Part shown: positions 32,221 to 50,372 of the stretch, one piece after another
How the letters are laid out: each line of letters starts with the position of its first letter
Numbering within the stretch: the first letter of the stretch is position 1
Origin: an uncultured Bacillota bacterium
Lineage (GTDB): Bacteria > Bacillota > Clostridia > Christensenellales > UBA1242
Assembly (NCBI GenBank): GCA_948465545.1
Contig: CAOJXO010000001.1
Span: 95,728-159,727, forward strand
Reading direction: 5' to 3'
Length of the DNA stretch: 64,000 bases
Translations under genes and position numbers: made by a program
Notes under the pieces: model-generated
What the model saw: the letters and a program-made list of their open reading frames with translations, nothing else
What the model was told of the DNA's origin: nothing
Databases searched by the model: none

Positions 32221-32394
32221 TTTTCCTCCTTGTTTAATATTTGCAATTTGACAATTCTTAATCAATTTAACTGCCAATATTCTACAAAATTAAACCTTCT
32301 GTAAAAAGTATAAAATTCAACAAGAAAAATGTCAAATAAATAATTATTAAATTAAAATAAATAATTATATATTATTCGTCCTCTTGCCTTAATT

Positions 32395-36427: not shown

Positions 36428-36504
36428 TGGGATGTAGCTCAGTCGGTTAGAGCACCACCCTGATAAGGTGGGGGTCGGTGGTTCGAGTCCACTCATCCCA
36501 ACCA
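36428..36504 (+). tRNA. tRNA-Ile (anticodon GAU), complete, CCA-encoded, carried just inside the element
   Basis: Cloverleaf read by eye: TGGGATG / GCTC-AGTCGGTTA-GAGC / CCACC-CTGATAA-GGTGG / GGGTC / GGTGG-TTCGAGT-CCACT / CATCCCA-A-CCA. Confidence 0.9.
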
Positions 36505-36507
36505 TCG

Positions 36508-36535
36508 AAAAGTCCGTGTTTACGGACTTTTTTTT
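36508..36535 (+). terminator. rho-independent terminator after the element tRNA-Ile
   Basis: AAAGTCCGT-gttt-ACGGACTTT followed by T8. Confidence 0.85.
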
Positions 36536-36563
36536 ATGATTTTATAACTAAATTTAGCACAAA

Positions 36564-36599
36564 TTTTGACAGCAAATATACCTATTTTTGACAGCAAAT
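36564..36599 (+). repeat. two direct copies of TTTTGACAGCAAAT (candidate arm-type integrase sites)
   Basis: Identical 14-mers at 36564-36577 and 36586-36599, 22 bp apart. A third TGACAGCAAA copy lies at the other element end (50237-50246). Confidence 0.5.
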
Positions 36600-36716
36600 G
36601 TTTTTTTGCCAAAAAAGGACAAAAAAATAGACCGATAATTGCGATTTGCAACTATCGGTCTAAATTTACTTAAAACTGCCTAAAACTGATATATTTGTAG
36701 TCAAATTGTAGTCAAA

Positions 36717-38063
36717 CTACATTTCAAAATCTTTTTCTTTTTTGCGCTTTCGTTTTTCCAAAAGTTCAAGCAACTTATCAAGTTCGTCATCATTGAGATC
36801 TTCAAGTAAGTTTTGTGTTGTATTCGCCTGATCTGTCTTGTTGCCATCAACTGCATATTGTTTGTTTAATTTGTCGGTTGTTTTTTGAAAATATGAGCGG
36901 TCAACAGAGTTATATGTTGTGATTGTAGTTTTAACGGATTTGTGGCCCAAAAGTGCTTGAATAACTTTTGGGTTTTCATTATTCTCAAAAAGCATATTCG
37001 AATAGGTATGCCTTAGTCCATGAAAGTGAATCCCATATTTATCAAGTTTGTTTGACTTCAAAAATCTTTCAAGAATTGATTTTGTGCCAGAATAACTTCT
37101 CACACTTCCGTCACTATTACCAAAAACAAGCGAGGAATTTTGTGTTAAATTAACATTATTCTCTCGTCCAAAAAAGTGGCGATTTTCTTTCCATTCTTCC
37201 AAAGCTTGAATGAGAACATCTGGCATTGGCACTTCTCTAACAGAGCATGTCGTTTTCGTTTCACTGATGACGGTCACACGTTCTTTGACTTTCCCTTTTT
37301 CGTCAAACTTAGGGATGGTTGTTATTGCTCGTTTGATATTGATTGTCTTATTTTTAAAATCAATATCTTCCCAAGTGAGAGCCAATACTTCACCAGTTCT
37401 TAAACCTGCAAACATCATGCACATGCAAAGCGGTTTAAGAAATTCATGTGTGTTTAACTTGCTTAAAAATTCATCTCTCGCTTGCGGAGGGATTGCTTTA
37501 TATTTGTTTTCACTTTCATAAACTTTCCTTTCATTGCTTCGCACTCTTGTTCTTGTTGTAGGATTATTCGTCGCAAGTTTGTTATCAACAGCATAATTAA
37601 AAAATTGATTGAAGATAAATTTGACTTTCTTCACAACTGCAAGACTATATCCTTCTTCAAGCATTTCGTTAAGCACTTTCTGAATGACAATTGTGTCTAC
37701 TTCATCTATTTTCATATTCCCGATTTTAGGATCTATGTGCAATTTGAAATTTCTATATGTGTGTTCAAAAGTTCTTGGACTAACTTGCATTTTTTTAAAA
37801 ACTAAAAGCCACTCGTTCATCATCTCACCAATCGTTGTATTTTCAATATACTCATAATTATTGCTGCTTATTTTGTTCATTAATTTGTTGAGTTTGTCCA
37901 CGACTTCTAGACGCGATTTTCCGTAAACAGTCTTGCGAATTGTCTTACCATTTTCATTATATCCGGCAGTTGCAACGCCAGCCCATCTGCCATCTGATCT
38001 TTGGTATATTGACCCCTCATTGTTGCCACGTCTTGTTTTACTTCTTATTTTTTTCTTAGCCAT
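36717..38063 (-). CDS. int: tyrosine recombinase / phage-type integrase
   Basis: 448 aa. Catalytic signature: FAGLRTGEVLAL (Arg I), HGLRHTYSNMLF (H-x-x-R), LLGHKSVKTTITTY (His/Tyr). It is adjacent to the tRNA att site. Confidence 0.92.
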   Translation of the reverse strand: MAKKKIRSKTRRGNNEGSIYQRSDGRWAGVATAGYNENGKTIRKTVYGKSRLEVVDKLNKLMNKISSNNYEYIENTTIGEMMNEWLLVFKKMQVSPRTFEHTYRNFKLHIDPKIGNMKIDEVDTIVIQKVLNEMLEEGYSLAVVKKVKFIFNQFFNYAVDNKLATNNPTTRTRVRSNERKVYESENKYKAIPPQARDEFLSKLNTHEFLKPLCMCMMFAGLRTGEVLALTWEDIDFKNKTINIKRAITTIPKFDEKGKVKERVTVISETKTTCSVREVPMPDVLIQALEEWKENRHFFGRENNVNLTQNSSLVFGNSDGSVRSYSGTKSILERFLKSNKLDKYGIHFHGLRHTYSNMLFENNENPKVIQALLGHKSVKTTITTYNSVDRSYFQKTTDKLNKQYAVDGNKTDQANTTQNLLEDLNDDELDKLLELLEKRKRKKEKDFEM

Positions 38064-38316
38064 TTGTCACCTCACTTGCGTTGTTGTTTAAAGTCAGCCA
38101 AGTGACGAAATTAAGCACGCTTACAACTTGCCTTTTCCCAACTTTAGTTGTAGGAAAATCTTTGCTTCTCAAAAGATTTCTCACATTATCTCTTCCAAGC
38201 CCTGTAATTTTCATAATATCTTCACAATCTAAAAAATCTTTATCATATTTTGTTGAAATTCTATCCACTTCAGTTTGTATTAAATTGTTAATATTTAGTT
38301 GTTGATTGTTGTTCAT
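38056..38316 (-). CDS. xis: excisionase-family HTH DNA-binding protein
   Basis: 86 aa. It overlaps the int start by 8 nt. The HTH reads IMKITGLGRDNVRNLLRSKDFPTTKVGKRQVVSVLNFVTWL. Confidence 0.75.
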   Translation of the reverse strand: MNNNQQLNINNLIQTEVDRISTKYDKDFLDCEDIMKITGLGRDNVRNLLRSKDFPTTKVGKRQVVSVLNFVTWLTLNNNASEVTNG

Positions 38317-38495
38317 GTTTACTCCTCGTAGTTATATTTGTATTTATAAAAAATCGGTTTCGGGTATCCCGAAAGCTAAAAGATTGACGAGAACATTTGG
38401 TGATTCTGCCAAAAGCCTTTATTTTAGGGCAATTGGCAGATTTTATAACACCAAAAGTTTCTCACTTATCCTGTTTTCTTAAATCTCTATAAAAA

Positions 38496-39701
38496 TCACA
38501 TTTCAAAGTCTATAATTCCTTCTTCAACAAGCCTGCTAAACTTGGCTTCGTCAAGTCTTTGCATATATTCTTGAAAGGCACTCATAACTTCATATTCAAA
38601 TTGATTAGCAAGTCGCAAACACTCATTAAGTTGCTTTGCCAATTTCTTCTTTTGCATAAGTTTTTCTCTACGAACACTTGCATTAAGTTTTAATCTTTCG
38701 TTATCAATTTGTTTAATTTTGAAAGAATAGTCAATCACAATATTTCCAAGCCTGCGATAAATATCTTGCGTGTATTTCTTTTCAAAAAAGAATGGTTGTT
38801 TGCACCGATTTCGTTTGCAATAACATTCAAATCTTTCATCTTTATATTTTGCCAAATTAATAAAATCTTCATAGGCAACTTTTGAGAATTTTGATTTGTT
38901 TATCATATAACTTGTTATGCTGTCAATCTCAGATCGCAAACTTGACATATTCTCGCTTGCATAAGCAAGACTCCCTTTCTTTGAAAATCGGCCCGCAAGT
39001 GAAAGCAATTTGTTGTTGAGAATAAGCCCCATATTCTCGTTTAATTGCTCATTTACATATTCTTGAATAAGTTGTCTATTTCTTCTTTCTCGGGCTTTAA
39101 AATCAGTCGCAGCAAGCTCTAAATGTGCTTTAAATTCAAGAATGGCAGTTTTGGACAATTTGCCATTTGAAAACCCCTTGTCATCTTGTCGCGGACGCAG
39201 TCGAACCGGCTCTTTTTCAAAAAAGGATAAATGGATATGCCTGTTGTCGGTATTCTCGTGAAGTCCAGCATACCAAATCATATTGTCTGGATTAAGCCCT
39301 GCTCGTTTAAAAAACTTTGGCAATTCACTTTTCACAAGTTCATATGCCTGCTCATATGAATTGCACCAAGTCTTACCAAAGCTCTCTTCAAAGGTTATAA
39401 GCCCATCCCAAATAACAGACTGGGTTTCTCTTAATCGTTCTCTCAATTGCTTTTTATCCTTCTCTGATAAAAGTCCATTTTGATTAAATATGCCAGACGA
39501 TTTTTCTTTATTGTTTGCATACTCAACATAGTCTTTAAATTCTTGAATACCAGTTTGGATATAGTTAATATAATCTTTCGCTATGTTGGAAGAATAATAT
39601 TTTCTTTTCTCTTTATAAAAATCACTTGAATTGTTTGGCCCATAAAAGTTCAAGAAAAAGTTGACATTAGGCGTTTGATTATCTACCACCATTCTCCTCA
39701 T
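38496..39701 (-). CDS. relaxase (MobL/MobA-VirD2-like mobilization nuclease)
   Basis: His-triad region WYAGLHENTDNRHIHLSFF. The N-terminal YINYIQTG segment resembles MobL-type relaxases. It overlaps the upstream RHH gene. The start could instead be Met4 at 39692. Confidence 0.7.
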   Translation of the reverse strand: MRRMVVDNQTPNVNFFLNFYGPNNSSDFYKEKRKYYSSNIAKDYINYIQTGIQEFKDYVEYANNKEKSSGIFNQNGLLSEKDKKQLRERLRETQSVIWDGLITFEESFGKTWCNSYEQAYELVKSELPKFFKRAGLNPDNMIWYAGLHENTDNRHIHLSFFEKEPVRLRPRQDDKGFSNGKLSKTAILEFKAHLELAATDFKARERRNRQLIQEYVNEQLNENMGLILNNKLLSLAGRFSKKGSLAYASENMSSLRSEIDSITSYMINKSKFSKVAYEDFINLAKYKDERFECYCKRNRCKQPFFFEKKYTQDIYRRLGNIVIDYSFKIKQIDNERLKLNASVRREKLMQKKKLAKQLNECLRLANQFEYEVMSAFQEYMQRLDEAKFSRLVEEGIIDFEM

Positions 39702-40128
39702 ACTCTTTATTCATGATTTTGATTTTCTCATAATCAACATTGCAAAGCCCTTCACTAATGTCCCCGCCAACAATCTTATTGCCTTCGTTATTAAAAACTG
39801 CACAAGCAATATAGTTCAAAATCTTTTCTACAAATTTATTTTCAATATGTTGATCTGCACTATCAGCTTTTCTTTCACCATTTTGTCTTTTGAGTTCTTT
39901 GTTGATTTCGCTTAAATTTTCTTTAATTTCTGTCAAATTTATAATTTCATCATAGGCATTGTCTCCGAGCAATTTCTTTGCTCCAAGCAAAACGCAATGA
40001 CGAATAAAGTCTGCCATGTTGTCAAACTTTTTCTTGCTTTTGTCAAAAGCCTTTTCCAATGTTTCTTGATCCTCTTGTGTGTAAATTCGTAAAGTGTGTT
40101 GCAACTTCACTTTTTCTGGTTTTAACAT
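39679..40128 (-). CDS. MobC-like ribbon-helix-helix relaxosome accessory protein
   Basis: N-terminal strand-helix pattern (HTLRIYTQEDQETLEKAFDKS..MADFIRHCVLLGAKKLL). It sits immediately upstream of, and overlaps, the relaxase gene. Confidence 0.55.
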   Translation of the reverse strand: MLKPEKVKLQHTLRIYTQEDQETLEKAFDKSKKKFDNMADFIRHCVLLGAKKLLGDNAYDEIINLTEIKENLSEINKELKRQNGERKADSADQHIENKFVEKILNYIACAVFNNEGNKIVGGDISEGLCNVDYEKIKIMNKEYEENGGR

Positions 40129-40163
40129 TTTTACCTCCGTGTATTTTAAAATTTAGGTGCAAC

Positions 40164-40197
40164 AAAAAAAGAACGAGTGCAGGAAATCGTTCTTTTT
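40164..40197 (-). terminator. terminator after the sigma-like gene (alternatively an oriT inverted repeat)
   Basis: AAAGAACGA-gtgcaggaaa-TCGTTCTTT with a T7 run on the - strand. It lies in the 160-bp gap upstream of the mob genes. Confidence 0.55.
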
Positions 40198-40287
40198 CTG
40201 TTTGCTTCCTATAATATATAAAGGACATTTTAAAGTATAAAAGTTTAGGCAGTAAATGTATTTTTGATAGAAAATTTTAAAATTTTT

Positions 40288-40971
40288 CTATTTTTGTATT
40301 GATTTTATAAAATCAGTGACTGTTTTTGACATAAATTGCCAAAGTTTCTTTTGTTTTGGACTAAGCCCAACTCCAAGTTTATCTGCAGTTTTAATCGCTT
40401 GTGTCGCACCTTTTGCAAAATCTAAAATCTTATCTAAATCAAATTCAAAGTTCTCATTTGTCAAGCCTTCTTCAAGAGTGTCAATAAATTCATCTGTAAA
40501 ATGTTTGCAATGACTTTGCCAAAAATCTGTCTTAATAAAATCTTTATCTCTTGCAAGAAAGAAAACAAAATGCTTATAAGTTGTTTTCAAAAATTGCGTC
40601 AGTGCACTTTTGCTCATATTGTGTTTTTTGGCAATATCGCAAAGTTTCATATCTTTTTTAAATCTTTCAATCAAAATTTCTTTTTGTAGCGGTTGCAATT
40701 TTTCTGCAACTTTCCAAATTATTTCAGCAAAGATTTTATTATCAACCTCTTGCTCGATATCCACACTTTCATCTTTGATCGTCTCTATAAACTCAATCTC
40801 ATCGCCATCATCAGAAATGGTTTCAAAATAACTGCACTCATATTTACGTGCTTTTTTCATAAGTCTTCGCCAATATATATCGTTAGCCCAAAGATAGCGA
40901 GCAACTTCTTCACTGACTTCCAAGTCAATAGTTTTGTTATGTATTCGGTCTTTATACTTAATCCAAACCAT
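40288..40971 (-). CDS. sigma-70 region-4-like HTH regulator (227 aa)
   Basis: LQPLQKEILIERFKKDMKLCDIAKKHNMSKSALTQFLK resembles the sigma-70 r4 / LuxR-type HTH. The rest is unassigned. Confidence 0.5.
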   Translation of the reverse strand: MVWIKYKDRIHNKTIDLEVSEEVARYLWANDIYWRRLMKKARKYECSYFETISDDGDEIEFIETIKDESVDIEQEVDNKIFAEIIWKVAEKLQPLQKEILIERFKKDMKLCDIAKKHNMSKSALTQFLKTTYKHFVFFLARDKDFIKTDFWQSHCKHFTDEFIDTLEEGLTNENFEFDLDKILDFAKGATQAIKTADKLGVGLSPKQKKLWQFMSKTVTDFIKSIQK

Positions 40972-41027
40972 TCTTGCTCCTTTGCCAGATTATAACATAT
41001 ATGTTTCAACTTTGCTATGCATCTGAC

Positions 41028-41057
41028 AAAAAAAGACAAGCCAAAATATGGCTTGTC
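41028..41057 (-). terminator. rho-independent terminator ending the DGR transcription unit
   Basis: GACAAGCC-aaaatat-GGCTTGTC 8-bp stem followed by T7 on the - strand. Confidence 0.8.
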
Positions 41058-41080
41058 CTAAAAAGCGAGCATGAAAACCA

Positions 41081-41323
41081 TCAGCAAGACTTCCTTTTAA
41101 GTTTTTTGATTTCTTCTTTAAGTGCAAGAGTTTCTTCAGCAAGAGTTTTAAACTTTTCTTCGCTTGCTTTCATTTCTTTCTCAATTCCAACCCTGGATTT
41201 TTCATCCGCGTCAACATATCTTTCCATGATATCGAGTTTCTCTGCTTCCAACCCATCAAGCGTTTTAAGTTTTTCATCCAATGCTTTTTCAAATTGTTTT
41301 AATTGTTTTTCAACGTTTTCCAT
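41081..41323 (-). CDS. small coiled-coil protein (80 aa)
   Basis: AAGGAG RBS. Heptad-like, Glu/Lys-rich sequence. The gene is translationally close to the stop of the DGR target. Confidence 0.55.
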   Translation of the reverse strand: MENVEKQLKQFEKALDEKLKTLDGLEAEKLDIMERYVDADEKSRVGIEKEMKASEEKFKTLAEETLALKEEIKKLKRKSC

Positions 41324-41333
41324 AAGTCACTCC

Positions 41334-44261
41334 TTATAACGTTTGCTGACTTTCAGCTCTTTTCTCTCGAATCTCTTGGATATCTTTTCTCGCTTCTTTT
41401 GCAGCCTGTCTGATTTCATCGCCATACATTCTTGTCACTTCATCGTAGGTTTTGATGATGTATTGTGCACTGCGAGCGTCCGAATATCCGCTATATCCTC
41501 TGTGCTGTGCCTTTGGACTGGACTCTCTTTCAAACTTTTCTGAAAGTTCGCGTTTTAAATCGTTGTAGCCTTCGCCAGTTGTCACTCTTTCAACTTTCAT
41601 GCCATCTTTGTTCATTGCTGTCATAATTGCGACCGCAGACTCTTCAACAGCGTCCATAAGAGTTTTGGAAGTAACCCTGCTGTCTTCATGCTTGTTGCCT
41701 TTGCGCATTTCATCAAGAACTTTTGTTGGAATTTCAATGTTGTCATAGCAAACCGTCTTAGTTTGTGGGTCATACCAAATATATGCTTGTCCAAGCACTC
41801 TGGTCTCGCCAGTTGGCTTTCCATTTTCGTCCAAAATACTTTCTTCAAACACAAGAAACCCTGCGTTTGGATTTGTGTATCCATCATCAACACAAGTTTC
41901 TCCGTCCCCACCAAGCACTTGACAACAATTTGTAATGTCTCCAAGCACAAAGCCAAGCGGATCATCTTTTTCAAGAACTCTAAATTGCACGGGATTGCTT
42001 TCTTTTGCTTTGTCAGCTCTTATAATGTAGGTGTCTTTCAACTTTTTAGCAGTCTCATAAACTTCTTGAATATGGTCAAATTGTTCTTGATCATAGCCAT
42101 ATCTTCCGAGCAACTCCGCCAAAATTTCGTTTCCTTCTTCCACACCTTCATATTCAACAAAAGATGAATGTTCAGCAACAAATCTTGGGGAAAGTAATGC
42201 ACGCTCTTCATTTCCATTCACAACTCTGTTTGGATAGTTTTTCAAAATGCTTTCAAACGCATTGTGCGCTGCGCACAAATAATCTTGGCTGTCCATCAAA
42301 TCGCCATCTTTATCACGAAGGCGGAAGTTCATAAAGTCAGGATTGTCTTTATAATATTTCATGAAAAATTGAGCAAATGCTTTGTTGTATTCACCTTTAA
42401 GTGTCAATTTTGAAAATCTTGCATGAATTTCAGCACCAATTTGACTTGGCGTTGGATTTTTTACATACGCATATCCCTCGCGTCCAATAATAGCCTTTCC
42501 CTTTGCAACATATTGCAAAATATATTCAAAAGCCTTTTCACTTTCACCTTGATTTTCTGAAAAGCCACCAATTGCATAGTAAATTTTCATAAGATCAACA
42601 AGTGAATTATTTTTCTCAGTTCCTTCCAGAGTGTCAAAGCCAAGAGTTTTGACAAGTTTGCCCCAACGCCCGCTATTGTTGTTTACAAAATATTTTTCCA
42701 TTTGGCTGGAAGGGAAAACTTCCATCGTATATTCGGGTGGAATAAATTTGATTTTCTTTTCTTCACGCCAAACTTTAAGTTGAACATAGTTCTGTCTGAA
42801 ATTGTTTTCAAACCATTTGCTTACAGGTTTTAAGCCTTGTCCTGCAATTTGCCCGAAATTAATAGTGGCGTCAAAAGCTCCAGACATTCTTTCAGTTTCA
42901 AGTGTTGAAATGCTTTCTCTAACGCAAGATTTTTCAAGTTCAGGATCAACACTTGTTGTCATTGTCAATTTCGTTCCATCTTTTGACAAATAAATATATT
43001 TAAATGCACTGCCAGCAAAAGCTTTCTTATCAATTGAAATTCCTTTTGCTCCACATATAAATTCCAATTGCGTGTTTTGAAGACCTGAGAACGCATTTGC
43101 ACCAACTTTCTTTACGCCATCATGAACAATAATTTTTTCAATCCCTACGCATCCAGCAAACGCATAGTCAGCAATCTCTTTTTCGTATTCTGGGATAACA
43201 TATTCACGCGTTGGCTCACGCGTCAAATCAAGTGCTTGATACAAAAAACCGCTTTTTGAAAAATCCCATTTGTATGGAGTTTCAAATTCTGGATTTCCAT
43301 CCAATTCTTCACTTTTGGCAGAACTTAAAAAGCATCTTTGTAAGCTGTTTTGCCACATAGAACAATTTGAATGATGCCAGTCCGGATAAAATGGCAAGCC
43401 AGACAAGATTGCTTCTTCCGCTTCTAGCTCGATTGTCTCATCTGCACCAAATCTTTTTCCTTTTGGATTGATGCTTTTTGGCAGACGATCCCAGTTTGTT
43501 ATTTCAAATGTCACTGGCTCAACTTCAAGCCAGACTACAGCACCAGTTCTTGGCACAGCACTTCCATCTGCAAACTTTCTGTCGTTGTCATTCCAAACGA
43601 TTGTCCTGACATATTTTTTGCCATTAAGTTCAAATTCTGGATTTTGCTTTGACAAAAAGTCTTTTCCAGATTCTCTTTGACCATTCGTCGTGAAAAGTCT
43701 GCCTGTGCAAGTCAGTCCTGACTTCAAAATTCCACCGTTAAACATTTCTTCAAGCGCTTGTTGGATCTCGTCAGTCGCTTTTGTCTTTGGATATTCTCCA
43801 ATTTTCAAAAAATGTTTTTCTTTCCCACTTTTTGTCTTTTTAGTCTCAAAAATTTCGCTCGCCGACGCGCTTCGCGCGGCGATTAAAGATTGAAGATTAA
43901 GGGACAAAGCGGGAACGGAGCCAAGGGAACTAAGGTTTACAGAGGTAGAGGACCGCGAGCCGTCACTGGTCACACGTCTTACATAGTTTCCATCGTCAGC
44001 CGAACGCGACCAATAAACTCCTGTAAATTTGTCGTTTTCTGCTGTATAGGAAGAATTCTGCCAAGCAAAATTGCATAAAGCAAAGTCTGTGTTTGATTTT
44101 CTTCTTTCTTCGTTTGTTCTGTCAGCCATTTCATCCCAAGAAAGAAGTCTCACGCTGTCAGTTGTGTCAAACTCTCTGCTGGCGTTGTCTCCACGATTGT
44201 CCGTGTTTTTGTTTTTTCTTGCCACAATCATTTGCATAAAGTTTATTTTTTCTTTTGCCAT
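41334..44261 (-). CDS. DGR target protein (975 aa): N-terminal variable domain, BspA-type leucine-rich repeats, large unassigned C-terminal region; no signal peptide
   Basis: GGAGA RBS and ATG at 44261. The VR covers aa ~84-119 (WSRSADDGNYVRRVTSDGSRSSTSVNLSSLGSVPA). The LRR_5-like segment is aa ~353-425 (IPEYEKEIADYAFAGCVGIEKIIVHDGVKKVGANAFSG..). The N-terminus is hydrophilic. Confidence 0.9.
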   Translation of the reverse strand: MAKEKINFMQMIVARKNKNTDNRGDNASREFDTTDSVRLLSWDEMADRTNEERRKSNTDFALCNFAWQNSSYTAENDKFTGVYWSRSADDGNYVRRVTSDGSRSSTSVNLSSLGSVPALSLNLQSLIAARSASASEIFETKKTKSGKEKHFLKIGEYPKTKATDEIQQALEEMFNGGILKSGLTCTGRLFTTNGQRESGKDFLSKQNPEFELNGKKYVRTIVWNDNDRKFADGSAVPRTGAVVWLEVEPVTFEITNWDRLPKSINPKGKRFGADETIELEAEEAILSGLPFYPDWHHSNCSMWQNSLQRCFLSSAKSEELDGNPEFETPYKWDFSKSGFLYQALDLTREPTREYVIPEYEKEIADYAFAGCVGIEKIIVHDGVKKVGANAFSGLQNTQLEFICGAKGISIDKKAFAGSAFKYIYLSKDGTKLTMTTSVDPELEKSCVRESISTLETERMSGAFDATINFGQIAGQGLKPVSKWFENNFRQNYVQLKVWREEKKIKFIPPEYTMEVFPSSQMEKYFVNNNSGRWGKLVKTLGFDTLEGTEKNNSLVDLMKIYYAIGGFSENQGESEKAFEYILQYVAKGKAIIGREGYAYVKNPTPSQIGAEIHARFSKLTLKGEYNKAFAQFFMKYYKDNPDFMNFRLRDKDGDLMDSQDYLCAAHNAFESILKNYPNRVVNGNEERALLSPRFVAEHSSFVEYEGVEEGNEILAELLGRYGYDQEQFDHIQEVYETAKKLKDTYIIRADKAKESNPVQFRVLEKDDPLGFVLGDITNCCQVLGGDGETCVDDGYTNPNAGFLVFEESILDENGKPTGETRVLGQAYIWYDPQTKTVCYDNIEIPTKVLDEMRKGNKHEDSRVTSKTLMDAVEESAVAIMTAMNKDGMKVERVTTGEGYNDLKRELSEKFERESSPKAQHRGYSGYSDARSAQYIIKTYDEVTRMYGDEIRQAAKEARKDIQEIREKRAESQQTL
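43863..43881 (-). promoter_or_regulatory. GC-rich hairpin 23 nt downstream of the VR 3' end
   Basis: CGCGC-GAA-GCGCG (read on the - strand), extendable by 2 bp across one mismatch. It lies in an otherwise AT-rich gene. Confidence 0.55.
43905..44013 (-). repeat. DGR variable repeat (VR)
   Basis: 109 bp aligned to 45570..45678. There are 90 identities and 19 mismatches, and every mismatch is at an A of the TR coding strand. Confidence 0.93.
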
Positions 44262-44344
44262 GCGTTTCTCCTTAAAACTTACATATTAAGTATATCACAT
44301 TTTGTAAAAAAAGTAAATACCTGTGCCTTAAAAAGTTATTCCTC

Positions 44345-45358
44345 TTATGTTTTTATGTATCGTTGCAACAAATTTAAGGCATTTGAATGGCATAAATGTG
44401 CTTTATAAGCGTTTAGTCGCACATTGATATATTCGTCATCGACAAGTTCTTCTTTCCTAAATCGATAAATATGTTTGATATTTCGCCTTAATCTCAATTT
44501 TGCTTGAGCTCTTAAAAGTCGAATGATTTTGCCATTCTCATTTAAAATTGTTCTAAATCCCAAGAAATCAATTCCATTTGAGAGTTTTCCAATTTGTGTT
44601 TTCTCATTAAGTTCAAGATGAAGCTTTTCGTTGCAATAATTTTCTATCTCATTTTTGCAATGTTTGAGATATTCCTTATCTTTATGCACCAAAATCATGT
44701 CGTCCATATAGCGCACATAATATTTTATCCTAAGTTTCTCTTTTATAAAATGGTCAAGTCCATTAAGATAAAAAAGTGCAAACCATTGACTTGTTTGATT
44801 ACCTATTGGGAGCCCAACATTTGTGTCAAAATTTCTGCTGTCGATTATTTGATTTATTATCCACATGACTTTGTCATCAAAATCAACTTTTAAAAGTTGT
44901 CTTTTTAAAATGTCATGGTCGATATTTTGAAAATATTTTCTTACATCGCATTTCAAAAAATAGCCCACATTGTTTTTGTTGATATTATAAAATTTACGCA
45001 AGAATAATTTCAATCTATCAAGTCCAAACATTGTTCCTTTGCATTTTCTGCAAGCAACATTGTCAAAAATCAGTTTATTCTCAAGTTTAGATTCCAATAT
45101 GTTTGTGCAAAAAGCCATCAAAACAACTCTGTCTTTATATGACAGAGCTTCAATGTTTCGCTTTTTGGGCTCGTATATATAAAATTGTTTATATTTGCCG
45201 ATTTGATATGTTTGCTGTAAAAGTTTTTTTGACATTTCAGTCAAATTCTGACTTAAATTTATTTCAAAAGAGATTGTTTCTTTTTTATGCTGCCTTGAAA
45301 GTCTGCATTTTTTGTGTGCAGCGAGCAACTTTTCAAATGTGAAAGCATCTTCAAGCAT
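44345..45358 (-). CDS. DGR reverse transcriptase
   Basis: The start is MLEDAFTFEKLL at 45358, preceded by AAGGAG. RT motifs are present, including PIGNQTSQ (the [ILV]GxxxSQ motif characteristic of DGR RTs) and YVRYMDDMILV (YxDD). Confidence 0.93.
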   Translation of the reverse strand: MLEDAFTFEKLLAAHKKCRLSRQHKKETISFEINLSQNLTEMSKKLLQQTYQIGKYKQFYIYEPKKRNIEALSYKDRVVLMAFCTNILESKLENKLIFDNVACRKCKGTMFGLDRLKLFLRKFYNINKNNVGYFLKCDVRKYFQNIDHDILKRQLLKVDFDDKVMWIINQIIDSRNFDTNVGLPIGNQTSQWFALFYLNGLDHFIKEKLRIKYYVRYMDDMILVHKDKEYLKHCKNEIENYCNEKLHLELNEKTQIGKLSNGIDFLGFRTILNENGKIIRLLRAQAKLRLRRNIKHIYRFRKEELVDDEYINVRLNAYKAHLCHSNALNLLQRYIKT

Positions 45359-45569
45359 ACAATCTCCTTTTAATTTTAAAGATGCCACCACCTGAAAGAC
45401 AGAAAACTTCCAAAGAAACATTCGTTGGTTGTTATGGTGGCAATTTTCTTCCAATTCTTTCGCAAGAGTTTGGAAAAGAGTAAGATTCCTTTGCCTTAAA
45501 CACGGGGTTGCTCCACTTGGATGCAATCACTTCTGGCATTTTATCAAGCATAATGCTTGCTTTATAAGG

Positions 45570-45678
45570 CAAATCGGGAACGGAGCCAAGGTTTCTATTG
45601 TTTACATTGTTATAGTTCCGCGAGCCGTCATTGTTCACATTTCTTACATTGTTTTCATCGTTAGCCGAACGCGACCAA
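45570..45678 (-). repeat. DGR template repeat (TR)
   Basis: Non-coding copy between avd and the RT gene. Read in the VR frame it has 12 Asn (AAC/AAT) codons (WSRSANDENNVRNVNNDGSRNYNNVNNRNLGSVPD). A 211-nt spacer follows before the RT start. Confidence 0.93.
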
Positions 45679-45724
45679 AACAGACAGTCCCAAAAATAAT
45701 CTTACCTTAATTAAAGCGTCACCG

Positions 45725-46300
45725 CTATAATCCGTATTTATTGCCGAGACGATCGGCGTCACTTTTTCTCCAAGCAACAAGCAGATTTATACAATCCGCA
45801 ACTTGCAAAGAGATTTGCTCATATTGCTTTTTCAATATACATTGGCTTTCAAGTGACAAAAAAGCCATGTATCCAAGAAGTTTCAGTTTTAAATATGCTG
45901 TGTGTTGACATTCTTTCCTTCGGTCAATGTTTTTGGCATTGTTCATTTGTAGTGAATTTGCCTCAATCAAATTTTCCAAAGCGTCCAAACAATAATTTTG
46001 CAATCTGTTTACAAAAACAGCTCGAAATCGCTTAGGCGACTTTTCTGTCACGGTGATGACATATGCTGCCAACTTTTTTGTTTTTGTGACAACCAAAAAC
46101 TCGCTTGTGCCTTGACGGATTTTCACCGGCTCGTCAATTTCTGGAATTTCGTTTTTAATGGCAGACGTTTCTTTATATTTTTTGTTTTCTCCGCGTGCAA
46201 CACCTTTTGCGGTTGCAACTCGGTCATCATAAATTTCCTTATTGTCAGCCACATTTGGGATTGTTAATTGAACTCCAATAGGATTTCTTCCTTTGTTCAT
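45725..46300 (-). CDS. avd: Avd-like four-helix-bundle accessory protein with ~70-aa N-terminal extension
   Basis: The C-terminal ~120 aa (KKLAAYVITVTEKSPKRFRAVFVNRLQNYCLDALENLIEANS...QYEQISLQVADCINLLVAWRKS) match the Avd / S23-like helical bundle pattern. The gene sits directly upstream of TR. ATG at 46300 with a GGAAAGGA RBS is preferred over the TTG at 46327. Confidence 0.7.
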   Translation of the reverse strand: MNKGRNPIGVQLTIPNVADNKEIYDDRVATAKGVARGENKKYKETSAIKNEIPEIDEPVKIRQGTSEFLVVTKTKKLAAYVITVTEKSPKRFRAVFVNRLQNYCLDALENLIEANSLQMNNAKNIDRRKECQHTAYLKLKLLGYMAFLSLESQCILKKQYEQISLQVADCINLLVAWRKSDADRLGNKYGL

Positions 46301-46352
46301 ATCCTTTCCTTTTATATATTTTATCAAAAAAATTTATGCTTTTCAATAGGTT

Positions 46353-46754
46353 TTAGAAAATATCTGTAATTGCAAACTTTGCATAGCATATTGACCTTTT
46401 GTCTTTAAAAATGTGCACATCTTTAAGTTTGGCATCTTCTTGCGTTAAGCAAAATACAAAATTTAAAATCAAATCGTTATACAAAACATCATCCATATAT
46501 AAAGGATAGTATTTGTCAAAATAGTCAACAAACTTCTCATGCTTATAAAGATATTCTCTAATCAACAAATGCACTTTATCATAGTTCCGTTGTCTTGTTT
46601 TCTTATTAAGGTTTGCAGCGCAAAAGCAAATTTCTTTTGGGATTATTTCTTTTAAGTCTTGATAGACAACATTGATGAGAAACTTCTCATCTTCTTTTGT
46701 TTGATATAAATGATCAATTAGCTTTCGCTTTTCATCTTGGGTTAAAGTAATCAT
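46353..46754 (-). CDS. hypothetical protein (133 aa)
   Basis: Clean ORF with an RBS, 25 nt upstream of avd and 17 nt downstream of the SLOG gene. No motif recognised. Confidence 0.55.
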   Translation of the reverse strand: MITLTQDEKRKLIDHLYQTKEDEKFLINVVYQDLKEIIPKEICFCAANLNKKTRQRNYDKVHLLIREYLYKHEKFVDYFDKYYPLYMDDVLYNDLILNFVFCLTQEDAKLKDVHIFKDKRSICYAKFAITDIF

Positions 46755-46771
46755 TTTTCTTTTCCTTTAAT

Positions 46772-47290
46772 TTATCTATAATCCTCTGGGTTTATAATTC
46801 TCACTTTGCATCCATTTTCTTGTGCGAAACGCACAGTGTTTCCTGTTCCGCTTCTTTTTCCGCTCCAGCAAGCAATACAAACACTTGAATGTTGCACCAT
46901 CCACAAATTTCTTTCATTAAAACATTCTTGAGTAGGATGGTCTGACAAAATTATTTTGTCGTCACAGTGTCCTAAGATTTTCCAATATCTTTCTTGCTGC
47001 TTTGGTTTCCAATTTTTCTCTTGTCCTTTGCATGGGATAACAGCAATCAACTTGATATGCGGAAAGTCATTTTGCAATTCAATTAAGGTTTCAGCGGCAA
47101 TCATATCAAAGCCCTCTGCCATACCTGTCAAAAAGGTTGTTATTCCATAATTGATTGCGCCAATATAAAGATTTTTCAAATCCTCTTTAAATTTGGCACA
47201 ACTCGGTCTTGTTTCGTTATAGCCCCAAGGCAAGCCAAAAGGTCTGTGTCCGGTGTTGCAAGCGGTTTCTTCTTTAATAATGTTTATCAT
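46772..47290 (-). CDS. SLOG-superfamily protein (DUF1273/YpsA-like)
   Basis: The start is MINIIKEE at 47290 with a GGAAGGA RBS. The TGHRP motif, the GMAEGFD segment and the C-terminal GTGNTV are typical of the YpsA/DUF1273 SLOG fold. Confidence 0.7.
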   Translation of the reverse strand: MINIIKEETACNTGHRPFGLPWGYNETRPSCAKFKEDLKNLYIGAINYGITTFLTGMAEGFDMIAAETLIELQNDFPHIKLIAVIPCKGQEKNWKPKQQERYWKILGHCDDKIILSDHPTQECFNERNLWMVQHSSVCIACWSGKRSGTGNTVRFAQENGCKVRIINPEDYR

Positions 47291-47520
47291 TTCATCCTTC
47301 CTTTTATATCGCGTATGTATCAATACAAAAATGACTTATAATTGAATACTTTTGCAGAATTTGATTAAAAATATATCAGTGTTTGACTTATATAGTGCAG
47401 AGTATATCACACAATGATATAAAATTGCAAATTATTTTGACAAAATTAAAAATTCACATCACTCTTTGATTAAGGCAAAAGATTGCCAGAATTTAAAATT
47501 AAAAAGTGAGGTGAGTTATT

Positions 47521-47853
47521 ATGAAAAATAAGGAAAATTTTAATAAAGAATATAAGGATTTAGTTTTTAAAATCGGTTATTTTAGAAATAAAAACAACTT
47601 GTCGGCAAGAGACACAAGTTTGCGTTTGGGTTTCAGCGATAGTTTTATAAACAGAATTGAAACATATAAAGTTGAATTGAAAGTTTCAACATTGTTGAAG
47701 TTTATGGAGCTGGTGGGAATAACGCCGGAAGAATTTTTCTATGCCAATCCAGAAGATTATGCAAAAGATAAAGAGATCTTTGACCTTATCAAATCATTAA
47801 GTTCTGAAAATAAAGAAACAATACTTGATTTGGCTAAAAAGTTGAAAAGATAA
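47521..47853 (+). CDS. XRE-family helix-turn-helix transcriptional regulator
   Basis: 110 aa with a GAGGTGAG RBS. The HTH reads LSARDTSLRLGFSDSFINRIETYK. Confidence 0.75.
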   Translation: MKNKENFNKEYKDLVFKIGYFRNKNNLSARDTSLRLGFSDSFINRIETYKVELKVSTLLKFMELVGITPEEFFYANPEDYAKDKEIFDLIKSLSSENKETILDLAKKLKR

Positions 47854-47862
47854 ATTGACAAC

Positions 47863-47895
47863 AAAAAACCGAGGGATATTTTCTCTCGGTTTTTT
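47863..47895. terminator. bidirectional terminator
   Basis: AAACCGAGGG-atatttt-CTCTCGGTTT flanked by A and T runs, between convergent genes. Confidence 0.8.
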
Positions 47896-47923
47896 GTATT
47901 TTTAGTTTTAAAGAATTTTGATT

Positions 47924-48646
47924 TTAATCTTCCAACACAACCACATTCACTTTATAAGTGTGAGCAGTACAGGCATCCAGTGCTATCATATCTTTTGTTA
48001 TGAAAGGCTCAAAATTTTCATTTTCTCCAAATTCATCATATTTCTCCGGATATTTTTCGTGCCACAAAGCACTGCAATGCCAATGTCCACACACAATCGT
48101 TTTGTTTGGCTCGTAAATTTCATATCTAAACATATCAACAGGGTTTTGCCAACGAGCTTTTTCCCAGCGCTCTTTGCGGGCATTTCGCCAATCGGCGTCA
48201 TATAAACAGCAATTTTCAATTATAGGTATCCAGCCATGAACAAAGATATAATGTTTTGTTTCAAAATAATCAACGCACAAAGACAGAACTTCTTCAAGCC
48301 CAGTTTCTTTTGCAATTTCTTTCAAGTCAAATTTGCTAACTTGCCATTCTGGGCACAAATCAACGATTGTATAAGCCGTTCCATTTGAAAGATCAGCAAA
48401 ATTGTTTTTATTTCGTTCAATCATTTCTTCCATTAAATATTCATGGTTGCCTTTGATTAGGATTATCTTATTTTTATGAGCCAAAACAAAATCAATAATT
48501 TGTTTTGGCTGACGACCTCTATCAAACAGATCACCACAAACAACTATTTTATGCTGTTGGTTGTCTATGTCAAAATCGTTTTTTTTCAAAGCCGACATCC
48601 ATTCATCAAAGAACCCATGAATGTCAGCACTTACAAAGTATTTCAT
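47924..48646 (-). CDS. calcineurin-like metallophosphoesterase
   Basis: Motifs are DIHG, GDLFDRG, GNHE and VHGW..CGHWH. Confidence 0.8.
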   Translation of the reverse strand: MKYFVSADIHGFFDEWMSALKKNDFDIDNQQHKIVVCGDLFDRGRQPKQIIDFVLAHKNKIILIKGNHEYLMEEMIERNKNNFADLSNGTAYTIVDLCPEWQVSKFDLKEIAKETGLEEVLSLCVDYFETKHYIFVHGWIPIIENCCLYDADWRNARKERWEKARWQNPVDMFRYEIYEPNKTIVCGHWHCSALWHEKYPEKYDEFGENENFEPFITKDMIALDACTAHTYKVNVVVLED

Positions 48647-48665
48647 ATTTACTCTCTTCTATCGG

Positions 48666-49964
48666 TTACATAATGCAAAAGACTGCATATAGTGGCACTG
48701 ACTTTATATTATTTTCAAAGCCAAAGTTTTTTGCTGAAATGCGGATTGCATAGGCTGGCTTAAATTGTTGCATATAAACCGCCAAACTTTTTGAGCGTGT
48801 ATTTTCACCAGATTTTACTTCAATCGGCACTACATCTTTATTAATGCGAGTTATAAAGTCAATTTCAGCATCAGATTTGCTTGTCCAATAGTATGCTGAA
48901 AGTTTGTTTACATCCAGCTGATTGAAAACATAATTCTCTGTCAATCCGCCTTTAAATTCAAAATTGTCATTGTCTAGAATAATATCGTCAAATTGGAGTT
49001 TCTGATTTGCACAGCATAATCCAACATCATTCATGTAAAATTTAAAATCATCCAGTGATTTAAAGGCATCAAGTGGAAGTTTAATTTGTTCAATCCTATA
49101 AAGTTGCTTTGCAATACCTGCCAAACACAGCCATTCAATTGCGTCTTCAAATTCTCTTGCTCTGCCACCACTTTTGATTAAGGAATATTTAAACTTTCTA
49201 TTTTCTTTTGCAAGTTGTGTAGTTATGTTTTTGTAAACAAGCCTCACTTTTGGGATCTCTGTGGCTTTGTTATATTTGCTCATATCATTGAAATAGGCTT
49301 GAAGAATTGTCTCTTGTTTAACTCTCACCAACTCATAATTACCAGTTTTCACAAATTCTTCAACAACCTCTGGCATTCCTCCGACAAACAAATAACTTTT
49401 ATATAAATCAATGGCTTCATTATGAAAAGGTCTTGCAAGTGGAGAGTTTTCCGCATAACATCTTTTAATTTCTTCAATTAAAACCTCATAGTTTTCATTT
49501 TGTGCAAGTAAAAATTCTTCAAAATCCATTGGTGCCATTGTCATAAATTGAACTTTCCCGACAGGGAATGAATAACTTCCTCTGTTTAGCGAAACTCCAA
49601 GCAAAGAACCCGTGGCAATTATATGATAATCATTTGCTTCTTCATTAAAATATTTTAATGAAGTCAATGCCTTTGGACAGCATTGAATTTCATCGAAAAT
49701 AATTAAAGTTTTTTCTTTGAAAATTTCTTTCTTTTTATGAGCACCAATCAACTTCAGAATCCTTGTTGGATCCAAGTTGTCAAAAAAATCTTTCAAACTT
49801 TCATCTTGCTCAAAATTGCAATAAACAGCATTGACATATTCTCGACTTCCGAACAAGTTCGTAATATAGGTTTTACCGACTTGTCGTGGTCCTTGTAAAA
49901 TCAAAGGCTTTCGATCTTCTGAATTTTTCCATTTTAATAAATCATTGTATATTTTTCTCTCCAT
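48666..49964 (-). CDS. AAA+ ATPase of the AAA_14/DUF4143 type
   Basis: Walker A (GPRQVGKT), Walker B (LIIFDEIQ), and a C-terminal restriction-endonuclease-like tail (EIDFI...PIEVK). Confidence 0.75.
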   Translation of the reverse strand: MERKIYNDLLKWKNSEDRKPLILQGPRQVGKTYITNLFGSREYVNAVYCNFEQDESLKDFFDNLDPTRILKLIGAHKKKEIFKEKTLIIFDEIQCCPKALTSLKYFNEEANDYHIIATGSLLGVSLNRGSYSFPVGKVQFMTMAPMDFEEFLLAQNENYEVLIEEIKRCYAENSPLARPFHNEAIDLYKSYLFVGGMPEVVEEFVKTGNYELVRVKQETILQAYFNDMSKYNKATEIPKVRLVYKNITTQLAKENRKFKYSLIKSGGRAREFEDAIEWLCLAGIAKQLYRIEQIKLPLDAFKSLDDFKFYMNDVGLCCANQKLQFDDIILDNDNFEFKGGLTENYVFNQLDVNKLSAYYWTSKSDAEIDFITRINKDVVPIEVKSGENTRSKSLAVYMQQFKPAYAIRISAKNFGFENNIKSVPLYAVFCIM

Positions 49965-50235
49965 TTTTTACTCCTCGTTTTAATAATAATATAGAAAAAC
50001 ACAAAAGTCAAGCAGAAATACCATTTTTTTGGAGATTGTCAAGGAGAAAAATTACACTTTTTTGGAGATAGTGCACATCTCAGCAATTAAAATGTCTTTC
50101 CCAACTTTAAAAATTCGCCAAAATGCTTCTATAGCCTTCTTAACCATTTTATATAGTTTTAGGCAGTCTCAAAACACTCAATTTACACTAAAAGGTGACT
50201 TTTGCAGTAAACTATTGTCAACTTTTTAAATTATG

Positions 50236-50247
50236 CTGACAGCAAAA
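50236..50247 (+). repeat. third copy of the TGACAGCAAA motif near attR
   Basis: CTGACAGCAAAA, ~80 bp inside the right element boundary. It matches the two left-end copies. Confidence 0.4.
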
Positions 50248-50325
50248 ACTATTTATTATTGCCAATTAAGTTTATTTTAGGCACTTATAGGAAAGAGAGT
50301 AAAATCTCTGCCAAATCAAACACTT

Positions 50326-50372
50326 CCCTGATAAGGTGGGGGTCGGTGGTTCGAGTCCACTCATCTCTACCA
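50326..50372 (+). pseudogene. 3' half of host tRNA-Ile(GAU) (attR side)
   Basis: CCCTGATAA-GGTGG-GGGTC-GGTGG-TTCGAGT-CCACT-CATCTCT-A-CCA. No 5' half precedes it. The acceptor arm matches the 5' fragment at 36328, not the element tRNA. Confidence 0.85.

Follow-up and report, generated by a model that had tools for sequence, protein, structure and literature searches.

We analysed a 64,000-nt stretch of DNA from an uncultured Bacillota bacterium (contig CAOJXO010000001.1; hereafter the window), in which a diversity-generating retroelement (DGR) lies directly downstream of genes for a SLOG protein and a 133-aa protein, ORF133. Our results indicate that these genes probably form two separable, adjacent modules on a 13.9-kb island inserted in a tRNA-Ile gene, and that read-through from the first into the second is possible. 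The first module would comprise an XRE-type helix-turn-helix (HTH) regulator and, divergent from it, a two-gene operon of SLOG and ORF133; the SLOG protein is predicted to bind or process nucleotides, ORF133 would be its small all-alpha partner, and the HTH protein presumably represses the operon. The second would be a complete, recently active DGR, in which an extended −10 promoter of its own serves avd, the template repeat (TR), the reverse transcriptase (RT) gene, the target gene with its variable repeat (VR) and an 80-aa open reading frame (ORF), up to a terminator at 41033..41059. Transcripts from the SLOG promoter that read into avd could add to DGR expression, but the DGR would not depend on them. 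The principal features are as follows.

47521..47853, plus strand: XRE/Cro-CI-type HTH regulator, 110 aa (Pfam HTH_3, E = 4.7e-07; PHROG transcriptional regulator families)
47291..47520, no strand: divergent intergenic region between the HTH and SLOG genes, with candidate SLOG promoter sites and an inverted repeat
46772..47290, minus strand: YpsA-family SLOG protein, 172 aa (Pfam YpsA PF06908, E = 4.6e-24; score 85.7 bits, cutoff 27.7)
46353..46754, minus strand: ORF133, 133 aa, small all-alpha protein of an unnamed family
45725..46300, minus strand: Avd, 191 aa, with an extension (residues 1-65, 46106..46300) and a four-helix-bundle core (residues 66-188)
45570..45678, minus strand: TR, of a 109-nt TR/VR pair
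44345..45358, minus strand: DGR RT, 337 aa from the ATG at 45358 (RVT_1, E = 1.8e-16)
41334..44261, minus strand: target protein, 975 aa, with the VR near its N terminus (about residues 83-119)
43905..44013, minus strand: VR, inside the target gene, 83% identical to the TR
41081..41323, minus strand: 80-aa ORF after the target gene, named as coiled-coil in the first-pass annotation, with no Pfam or PHROG family match

A first-pass annotation of the window had read these genes as one co-transcribed cassette, with SLOG and ORF133 as additional accessory functions of the retroelement. The layout that it described was confirmed in full from the ORF list and a Pfam scan: SLOG, ORF133, avd, TR, RT, target and 80-aa ORF follow each other on the minus strand, and then comes a strong terminator. 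The SLOG stop and the ORF133 start are 17 nt apart, with a ribosome-binding site in between, and the ORF133 stop is followed by a TTG after 25 nt (at 46327) and an ATG after 52 nt (at 46300) as possible starts of avd. However, all genes from 36717 to 49964 lie on the minus strand except the HTH gene, and hence the shared direction of the SLOG-DGR stretch says little about its transcription.

To place these genes in context, the window was compared with about 240 related loci (labelled L001 onward), including 80 loci from an Avd-based genome scan and 151 loci found from the SLOG side in metagenomes and viral contigs. Counts of SLOG-avd adjacency were made by 90% clusters and refer to informative clusters only. 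From the Avd side (tblastn, phmmer), SLOG was upstream of avd only in L001-L003, which carry the same island as the window, and in L013; when the 127 ORFs closest to avd on its upstream side were scanned with Pfam, YpsA turned up in the same four only. The SLOG-side search added one SLOG-avd case (L088), and the look-up of a 78%-identical SLOG added another (L236). Overall, SLOG was directly upstream of avd in only 2 of the 39 informative Avd clusters, and the 37 clusters that lacked it include L004, whose Avd is 90% identical to that of the window. Conversely, avd was directly downstream of SLOG in five of the 67 informative SLOG clusters and not so in the other 62. ORF133 was found beside a DGR only in the window and L003 and in L236.

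HRDC, MSL and CH1, known as accessory genes of DGRs, are, like SLOG and ORF133, small, co-directional and adjacent to the DGR core, but each is shared by 14-16 DGRs and they mostly follow clades of the RT tree, whereas a gene that no more than 3-4 DGRs have in common is a weak candidate for an accessory gene when judged as in Wu et al. (2018, PMC5758913). SLOG and ORF133 fail this criterion in our comparison: the former is upstream of avd in so few clusters, the latter in one lineage, and both recur without DGRs. In the sense in which avd, HRDC, MSL and CH1 are accessory factors of DGRs, SLOG and ORF133 thus appear not to be, and the accessory role proposed in the first-pass annotation is not upheld. 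Reading every DGR neighbour as an accessory factor is therefore unsafe, as the neighbours here would belong to a different, recurrent mobile-element module. Our literature search found no report linking DGRs to SLOG, DUF1273, YpsA or DprA.

A sigma-70 motif scan and terminator prediction gave the following sites.

46346..46318, minus strand: candidate avd promoter of the extended −10 type (TTGAAA-17-TGaTAAAAT), in the 52-nt gap between ORF133 and avd
41059..41033, minus strand: predicted intrinsic terminator at the end of the DGR operon, with an 11-pair stem (5 G-C pairs) and a T run; no other strong site of this kind was found

The −35 and extended −10 elements of the candidate promoter recur with a different spacer in L001 and L002, where they follow the SLOG stop at a distance of 9 nt; the same hexamers, again with a different spacer, are kept in L003, L236 and L015, and L088 has TGtTATAAT between SLOG and avd. 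Among 49 distinct upstream regions, 29 carry an extended −10 element within −70 to −11 of the avd ATG, against 11% of background 60-nt windows, and in 25 of these 29 the element is located 25-34 nt from the ATG. The motif recurs in relatives whichever gene stands upstream of avd. In L004, L008, L009 and L012 the upstream gene is on the opposite strand, so that those DGRs must start at avd. The motif and its conservation suggest that the DGR carries its own promoter.

Further support for modularity came from L236 (L236:2741-8055), which is a mosaic relative to the window: SLOG is 78%, ORF133 52%, Avd 96%, RT 69% and the target 36% identical, and the TR/VR pair is complete. This mosaicism implies that the block of promoter and avd was exchanged independently of its upstream and downstream neighbours. 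That a 96%-identical Avd is combined with an RT of only 69% identity is noteworthy in itself, as Avd must bind the RT.

Several observations weigh against a separation of the two modules. Promoter-like matches are common in the AT-rich window (37 found versus 30 ± 5.6 expected), so that the promoter argument rests on the comparison with relatives, and among these relatives L004 and L013 lack an obvious canonical −10 element. Terminator prediction found no terminator between SLOG/ORF133 and avd. Furthermore, among the SLOG proteins that are at least 50% identical to that of the window and have enough downstream sequence, four of the 12 informative clusters carry a DGR; three of these four share 96-99% identical Avd proteins, and hence represent one lineage. 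Three independent lineages nevertheless have SLOG next to avd (that of the window, to which L236 belongs, and those of L088 and L013), and their SLOG proteins are 78-100%, 57% and 30% identical to the window protein, respectively, and in L013 the neighbouring genes differ from those of the window island. Juxtaposition of SLOG and DGR therefore seems to exceed chance and yet to be facultative, which leaves room for a loose functional tie.

These results bear on two claims of the first-pass annotation. Its linkage of SLOG to DGRs survives in so far as homologous DGRs do co-occur with SLOG in three lineages, but the neighbourhood comparison also shows that the pairing is mostly absent and that ORF133 tracks SLOG. 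As for co-transcription, the genes are adjacent and co-directional and the only convincing terminator is indeed the one after the last ORF, whereas a promoter is predicted before avd and the co-directionality is island-wide. A single SLOG-ORF133-DGR operon would thus contain a conserved internal promoter motif but no internal terminator; of a promoter/terminator pair between 46353 and 46300, only the predicted promoter was found. The ORF133/avd junction folds no better than shuffled sequence (z = +1.06). A terminator-like site at 46691..46674 was discarded, since its stem has 3 G-C pairs, its T run is poor and it falls within the coding sequence of ORF133. Since no terminator separates the modules, co-transcription by read-through from the SLOG promoter into avd is possible.

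The SLOG protein is a true member of the YpsA family, as the first-pass annotation had proposed (SLOG/DUF1273). In addition to the PF06908 match, a profile built from its relatives matches the structure of Bacillus subtilis YpsA (2NX2; E = 1.4e-18), and its GHRP and GMAEGFD motifs are invariant among 32 homologues. The latter contains, as G60 and D62, the conserved substrate-binding motif GxD/E as defined in PMC6459960. Proteins of the SLOG superfamily are predicted to sense or process nucleotides, and branches of the YpsA family have been tied to conflict systems (PMC6459960). The window protein thus belongs to the same family as B. subtilis YpsA and its SPbeta prophage paralogue YoqJ, but it is only about 30% identical to YpsA-type sequences, and the cell-division role shown for YpsA may not extend to its branch. 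Unlike YpsA, it has no gpsB-like match among its flanking genes, which are the XRE-type HTH gene and ORF133, and an assignment to the cell-division-linked clade of YpsA proper was dropped for lack of gpsB synteny. We also rejected an identification as DprA, since the match to DNA_processg_A (DprA/Smf, PF02481) had partial coverage and remained below the cutoff (28.1 versus 29.6 bits) and the protein is of the YpsA type.

The regular partner of SLOG is the HTH gene rather than the DGR. The HTH gene is transcribed divergently from SLOG in the window and in its closest relatives, and HTH homologues adjoin SLOG homologues in L001-3, L013, L086, L089-91, L094, L237-240 and L242-243. The gene directly upstream of SLOG encodes an XRE-type HTH protein in 32 of 46 distinct cases. 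The intergenic region between the two genes contains promoter-like minus-strand sites at 47443..47414 and 47430..47401, as well as a 15-nt inverted repeat (47372-47386/47407-47421, 87% complementary) that might serve as an operator. Downstream of SLOG, the co-directional genes are varied: BrxA-BrxB-BrxC, an amidase, PrgI/TrbL/TraG, a sigma-r4-like gene, WYL and a single Avd. In many other SLOG loci the next gene is convergent. In L084 (L084:1513-6908) a 62%-identical SLOG homologue is directly followed by brxA, brxB and brxC of a bacteriophage exclusion (BREX) system. A small divergent ORF, at most a candidate HTH gene, lies upstream of that SLOG homologue.

ORF133 has no match in Pfam, PHROG or PADLOC, and tblastn against phage and plasmid collections gave nothing. 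A word-indexed homology search returned only its own cluster and suggested an orphan, which was overturned by an exhaustive HMMER search: the family comprises 63 representative clusters at E ≤ 1e-3, of 125-135 aa, with the conserved motif DIFKDKRSICY. The first-pass annotation had recommended structure prediction, and the AlphaFold2 model of ORF133 is all-alpha and confident (predicted local distance difference test, pLDDT, 92.1; predicted template modelling score 0.87), with no significant fold match in PDB or BFVD. Relatives of ORF133 directly follow a SLOG gene in L003, L236, L081, L242/243 and L244, where the neighbour is a diverged SLOG of 187 aa (hhalign probability 97.6%); they are found alone, after a divergent HTH gene, in L232-235 and L241. 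SLOG thus precedes ORF133 in five of seven lineages, of which only two have a DGR, and in L081, L242/243 and L244 the SLOG-ORF133 pair occurs without any DGR. Conversely, most SLOG homologues lack ORF133. It is also absent from L001 and L002, and is hence dispensable, since their Avd and RT are near-identical to those of the window (98-99% and 98%, respectively). In its distribution, ORF133 therefore seems to follow SLOG and not the DGR. A supposed link between ORF133 and ORFs of about 205 aa upstream of avd in L017 and L019 was dismissed: these have HGD...DFG motifs of a kinase-like kind, and what resemblance there is covers a short stretch and reflects composition.

Taken together, the conserved HTH gene upstream, the heterogeneous genes downstream and the occurrence of ORF133 after SLOG without a DGR indicate that the natural unit is probably XRE-type HTH plus SLOG, with ORF133 in some lineages, as a mobile-element module placed before variable cargo. 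The HTH-SLOG pair appears to be common on mobile elements of Clostridia and Bacilli. With its XRE regulator, YpsA-like SLOG and confidently folded ORF133, the module of the window offers a handle on the biochemical role of YpsA-family proteins in mobile elements.

Would this module nevertheless act on the DGR? It might be a signal-sensing regulatory front end that gates read-through into whatever cargo follows, be it a DGR, BREX or conjugation genes. The conserved HTH-SLOG pair, the diversity of its co-directional cargo, the missing terminator before avd and the predicted role of SLOG proteins as nucleotide sensors or processors (PMC6459960) are all in line with such a function. CapH-CapP, outlined in a preprint as an HTH-plus-partner module controlling immune operons (bioRxiv 10.1101/2022.04.27.489752), may be a precedent: as described there, a small XRE-type HTH and a partner gene head variable cargo, as HTH and SLOG do here, including BREX in L084. 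Going by the same outline, our module differs in that the partner is a SLOG protein and not a metallopeptidase, that the closest relatives have a divergent, not a co-directional, HTH gene, and that the regulatory link is only hypothetical. Furthermore, the DGR cargo has its own conserved promoter, a convergent next gene implies that SLOG ends its transcription unit in many loci, there is a single BREX case, and the tie between SLOG and HTH comes from gene context and not from biochemistry. We therefore consider a front end of this kind unlikely. A bolder version, in which XRE-type HTH, YpsA-like SLOG and ORF133 constitute an undescribed nucleotide-sensing control module that, with no terminator before avd, drives conditional read-through into the cargo, seems to us quite improbable. 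If it were true, a signal from the cell or the mobile element would govern DGR hypermutation in this island, and in L084 BREX would be gated by the same module.

Equally doubtful is that SLOG, alone or together with ORF133, serves this DGR clade as a lineage-specific accessory factor, co-transcribed with avd and acting in retrohoming, for instance by binding or protecting the single-stranded cDNA in the manner of DprA, or by changing nucleotide pools. The common strand, the gaps of 17 and 52 nt without a terminator, the adjacency of SLOG and avd in the lineage of the window, L001-3 and L236 as well as in L088 and L013, and the weak similarity to the DprA family would fit such a role, and the mechanism of DGR cDNA integration is not known to be settled. 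It is opposed, however, by the scarcity of SLOG-avd pairs on both sides of the comparison, which by the standard cited above makes for weak candidates (PMC5758913), by the conserved promoter before avd, and by the DprA match being below the Pfam cutoff in a YpsA-type protein, whose family is predicted to bind nucleotides. Least probable of all, we judge it very unlikely that SLOG and ORF133 form a toxin-antitoxin-like or defence pair, independent of the DGR and analogous to ShosTA (a DprA-like SLOG antitoxin, ShosA, with a phosphoribosyltransferase toxin, ShosT): the two-gene arrangement is alike, SLOG has a weak ShosA match (E = 2e-07), the pair occurs in five lineages, a candidate defence gene (PDC-S01) is on the same island and YpsA-family branches are linked to conflict systems (PMC6459960), but there is no phosphoribosyltransferase gene among the window neighbours, the partner being instead a 133-aa all-alpha protein without detectable fold relatives, most SLOG homologues lack ORF133, L001 and L002 keep SLOG alone, and ORF133 is also found solitary after an HTH gene.

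We return to the two-module arrangement and its second module, the DGR. Avd is an essential RT cofactor in the DGRs that have been studied, and a bAvd-like protein would be expected to form an RT-binding pentamer on which retrohoming depends. The first-pass annotation had described the Avd of the window as a protein of about 190 aa with an N-terminal extension, and this holds: homologues begin at the ATG at 46300, and the −10 element is downstream of the alternative TTG, which sets the length at 191 aa. Known Avd proteins are 'of similar length', typically about 110-130 aa, and basic, with a mean isoelectric point (pI) of about 9.5 (Wu et al. 2018, PMC5758913); the window Avd exceeds that length, and has a pI of 9.42 as a whole and 9.43 in its core. 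It matches the bAvd family PF22296 at residues 69-180 only, with 21.7 bits where the cutoff is 40, while residues 62-184 match PHROG 3206 ('Avd protein of DGR'; E = 4e-18). As the family matches start at residues 62-69, about 65 N-terminal residues are extra. In the structural model (pLDDT 77), the core (residues 66-188) resembles 2gsc and 2rld, with template modelling (TM) scores of 0.82-0.87, and bAvd 4dwl (TM 0.81), and the extension is modelled as a single helix of moderate confidence (residues 24-37) with a pair of short strands.

The extension is not peculiar to the window. We found more than 430 clusters of homologous Avd proteins, and 112 of the best 120 are at least 180 aa long; the homologues come mostly from metagenome-assembled genomes (MAGs) of gut Clostridia and Bacilli. 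Across this family the length of the extension is conserved, but its mean identity is 32%, versus 72% for the core, and its pI is variable (6.6 ± 1.8), versus 9.57 ± 0.13 for the core. The extension had been called charged, which does not hold in general. It is a genuine, family-wide trait of this DGR clade and would be part of the DGR itself, as a length-conserved, fast-evolving appendage on a basic core. In a large clade of DGRs from gut Clostridia and Bacilli, Avd is thus about 50% longer than the textbook protein. The extension could let Avd make an extra contact, whether to the RT, to the TR RNA or to a host factor. Given that the RT needs Avd as a cofactor in the studied DGRs, such a fast-evolving additional domain may alter the assembly or regulation of the RT-Avd-RNA complex. 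We found no published description of a long Avd; matches to 'N-terminal extension' in the DGR literature concern the RT or the target protein.

Some family members depart from the long form. In L024 (L024:2671-3221) the extension and the core are in different reading frames, and clusters P0078, P0082 and P0083 (107-109 aa) consist of nothing but the Avd core (74-79% identity). Frameshifts or errors of assembly may account for these cases, or they may be split or short variants that occur naturally.

Apart from its long Avd variant, the cassette is an ordinary DGR of the avd-TR-RT order. The RT gene lies beside a TR/VR pair, all TR/VR mismatches in the aligned core are at TR adenines, and related loci almost always have RT and avd side by side. 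The window and L001-L003 share an identical TR, whereas their VRs (43895..44025 in the window) all differ, almost entirely at TR adenines; the VRs of L001 and L002 each have one small indel. This combination of an identical TR with VRs that differ at TR adenines shows that the DGR has been mutagenic recently.

Compared with the DGR of Bordetella phage BPP-1 (architecture B1, avd-TR-RT; Wu et al. 2018, PMC5758913), the window shows the same core order and the same adenine-specific TR/VR differences, and its Avd shares the basic four-helix-bundle core of bAvd (4dwl). In contrast, the BPP-1 Avd has 128 aa, without the additional 65 residues of the 191-aa window protein. Further differences are that the target gene is downstream of the RT gene in the window, with the VR near the N terminus of a 975-aa protein, and that the DGR is carried not by a phage but by a mobilizable island in gut Clostridia-type genomes.

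In place of a clear C-type-lectin-like or Ig-like variable domain around the VR, the target protein gave only a weak DUF6273 match over residues 10-122, which include the VR (17.4 bits, below the cutoff of 23.5). The VR is located at the end of this DUF6273-like domain and is followed by BspA-type leucine-rich repeats (LRR_5) and a long C-terminal region; the usual position of a VR is C-terminal. A 51%-identical copy of the 80-aa ORF is present at L023:14872-15111, after a 61%-identical homologue of the target, which implies that this ORF travels with the target gene.

The SLOG and DGR stretch is part of an integrative mobilizable element of 13.9 kb (36453..50372), inserted in tRNA-Ile and delimited by a direct repeat. 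Its other features are listed below.

36428..36504: tRNA-Ile
36453..36504, plus strand: attL, the 3' half of tRNA-Ile and one end of the island; 52-nt direct repeat, 92% identical to 50321..50372
50321..50372, plus strand: attR, a second copy of the 3' half of tRNA-Ile, which marks the opposite end of the island; 52-nt direct repeat
36717..38063, minus strand: integrase, a mobility gene of the island
38496..39701, minus strand: MobL relaxase, a mobility gene of the island
48666..49964, minus strand: AAA_14/DUF4143 protein (PADLOC candidate defence family PDC-S01, E = 1.7e-169)

Further island genes are MobC-like, sigma-r4-like and a NinI-like phosphatase, in addition to the PDC-S01 candidate defence gene. 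An Rfam scan of the island returned the tRNA and otherwise sub-threshold matches only; neither a riboswitch nor any other known RNA turned up close to SLOG or avd. Near-identical copies of the island (L001-L003) are found in mouse-gut MAGs labelled Christensenella, Christensenellaceae or Eubacteriales.

A 70%-identical homologue of the AAA_14/DUF4143 protein is encoded divergently and directly upstream of avd in L008, L009 and L012. Many of the more distant long-Avd loci (L027, L029, L036, L038-L048 and others) have a small XRE-type HTH gene within about 1.3 kb upstream of avd (19 of 127 upstream ORFs), and in eleven distant loci the gene directly upstream encodes a protein with a response-regulator receiver domain. 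Regulatory genes of mobile elements would thus seem to be frequent neighbours of these DGRs. Outside the island, the window contains a giant ORF of 6563 aa on the minus strand (12586..32277).

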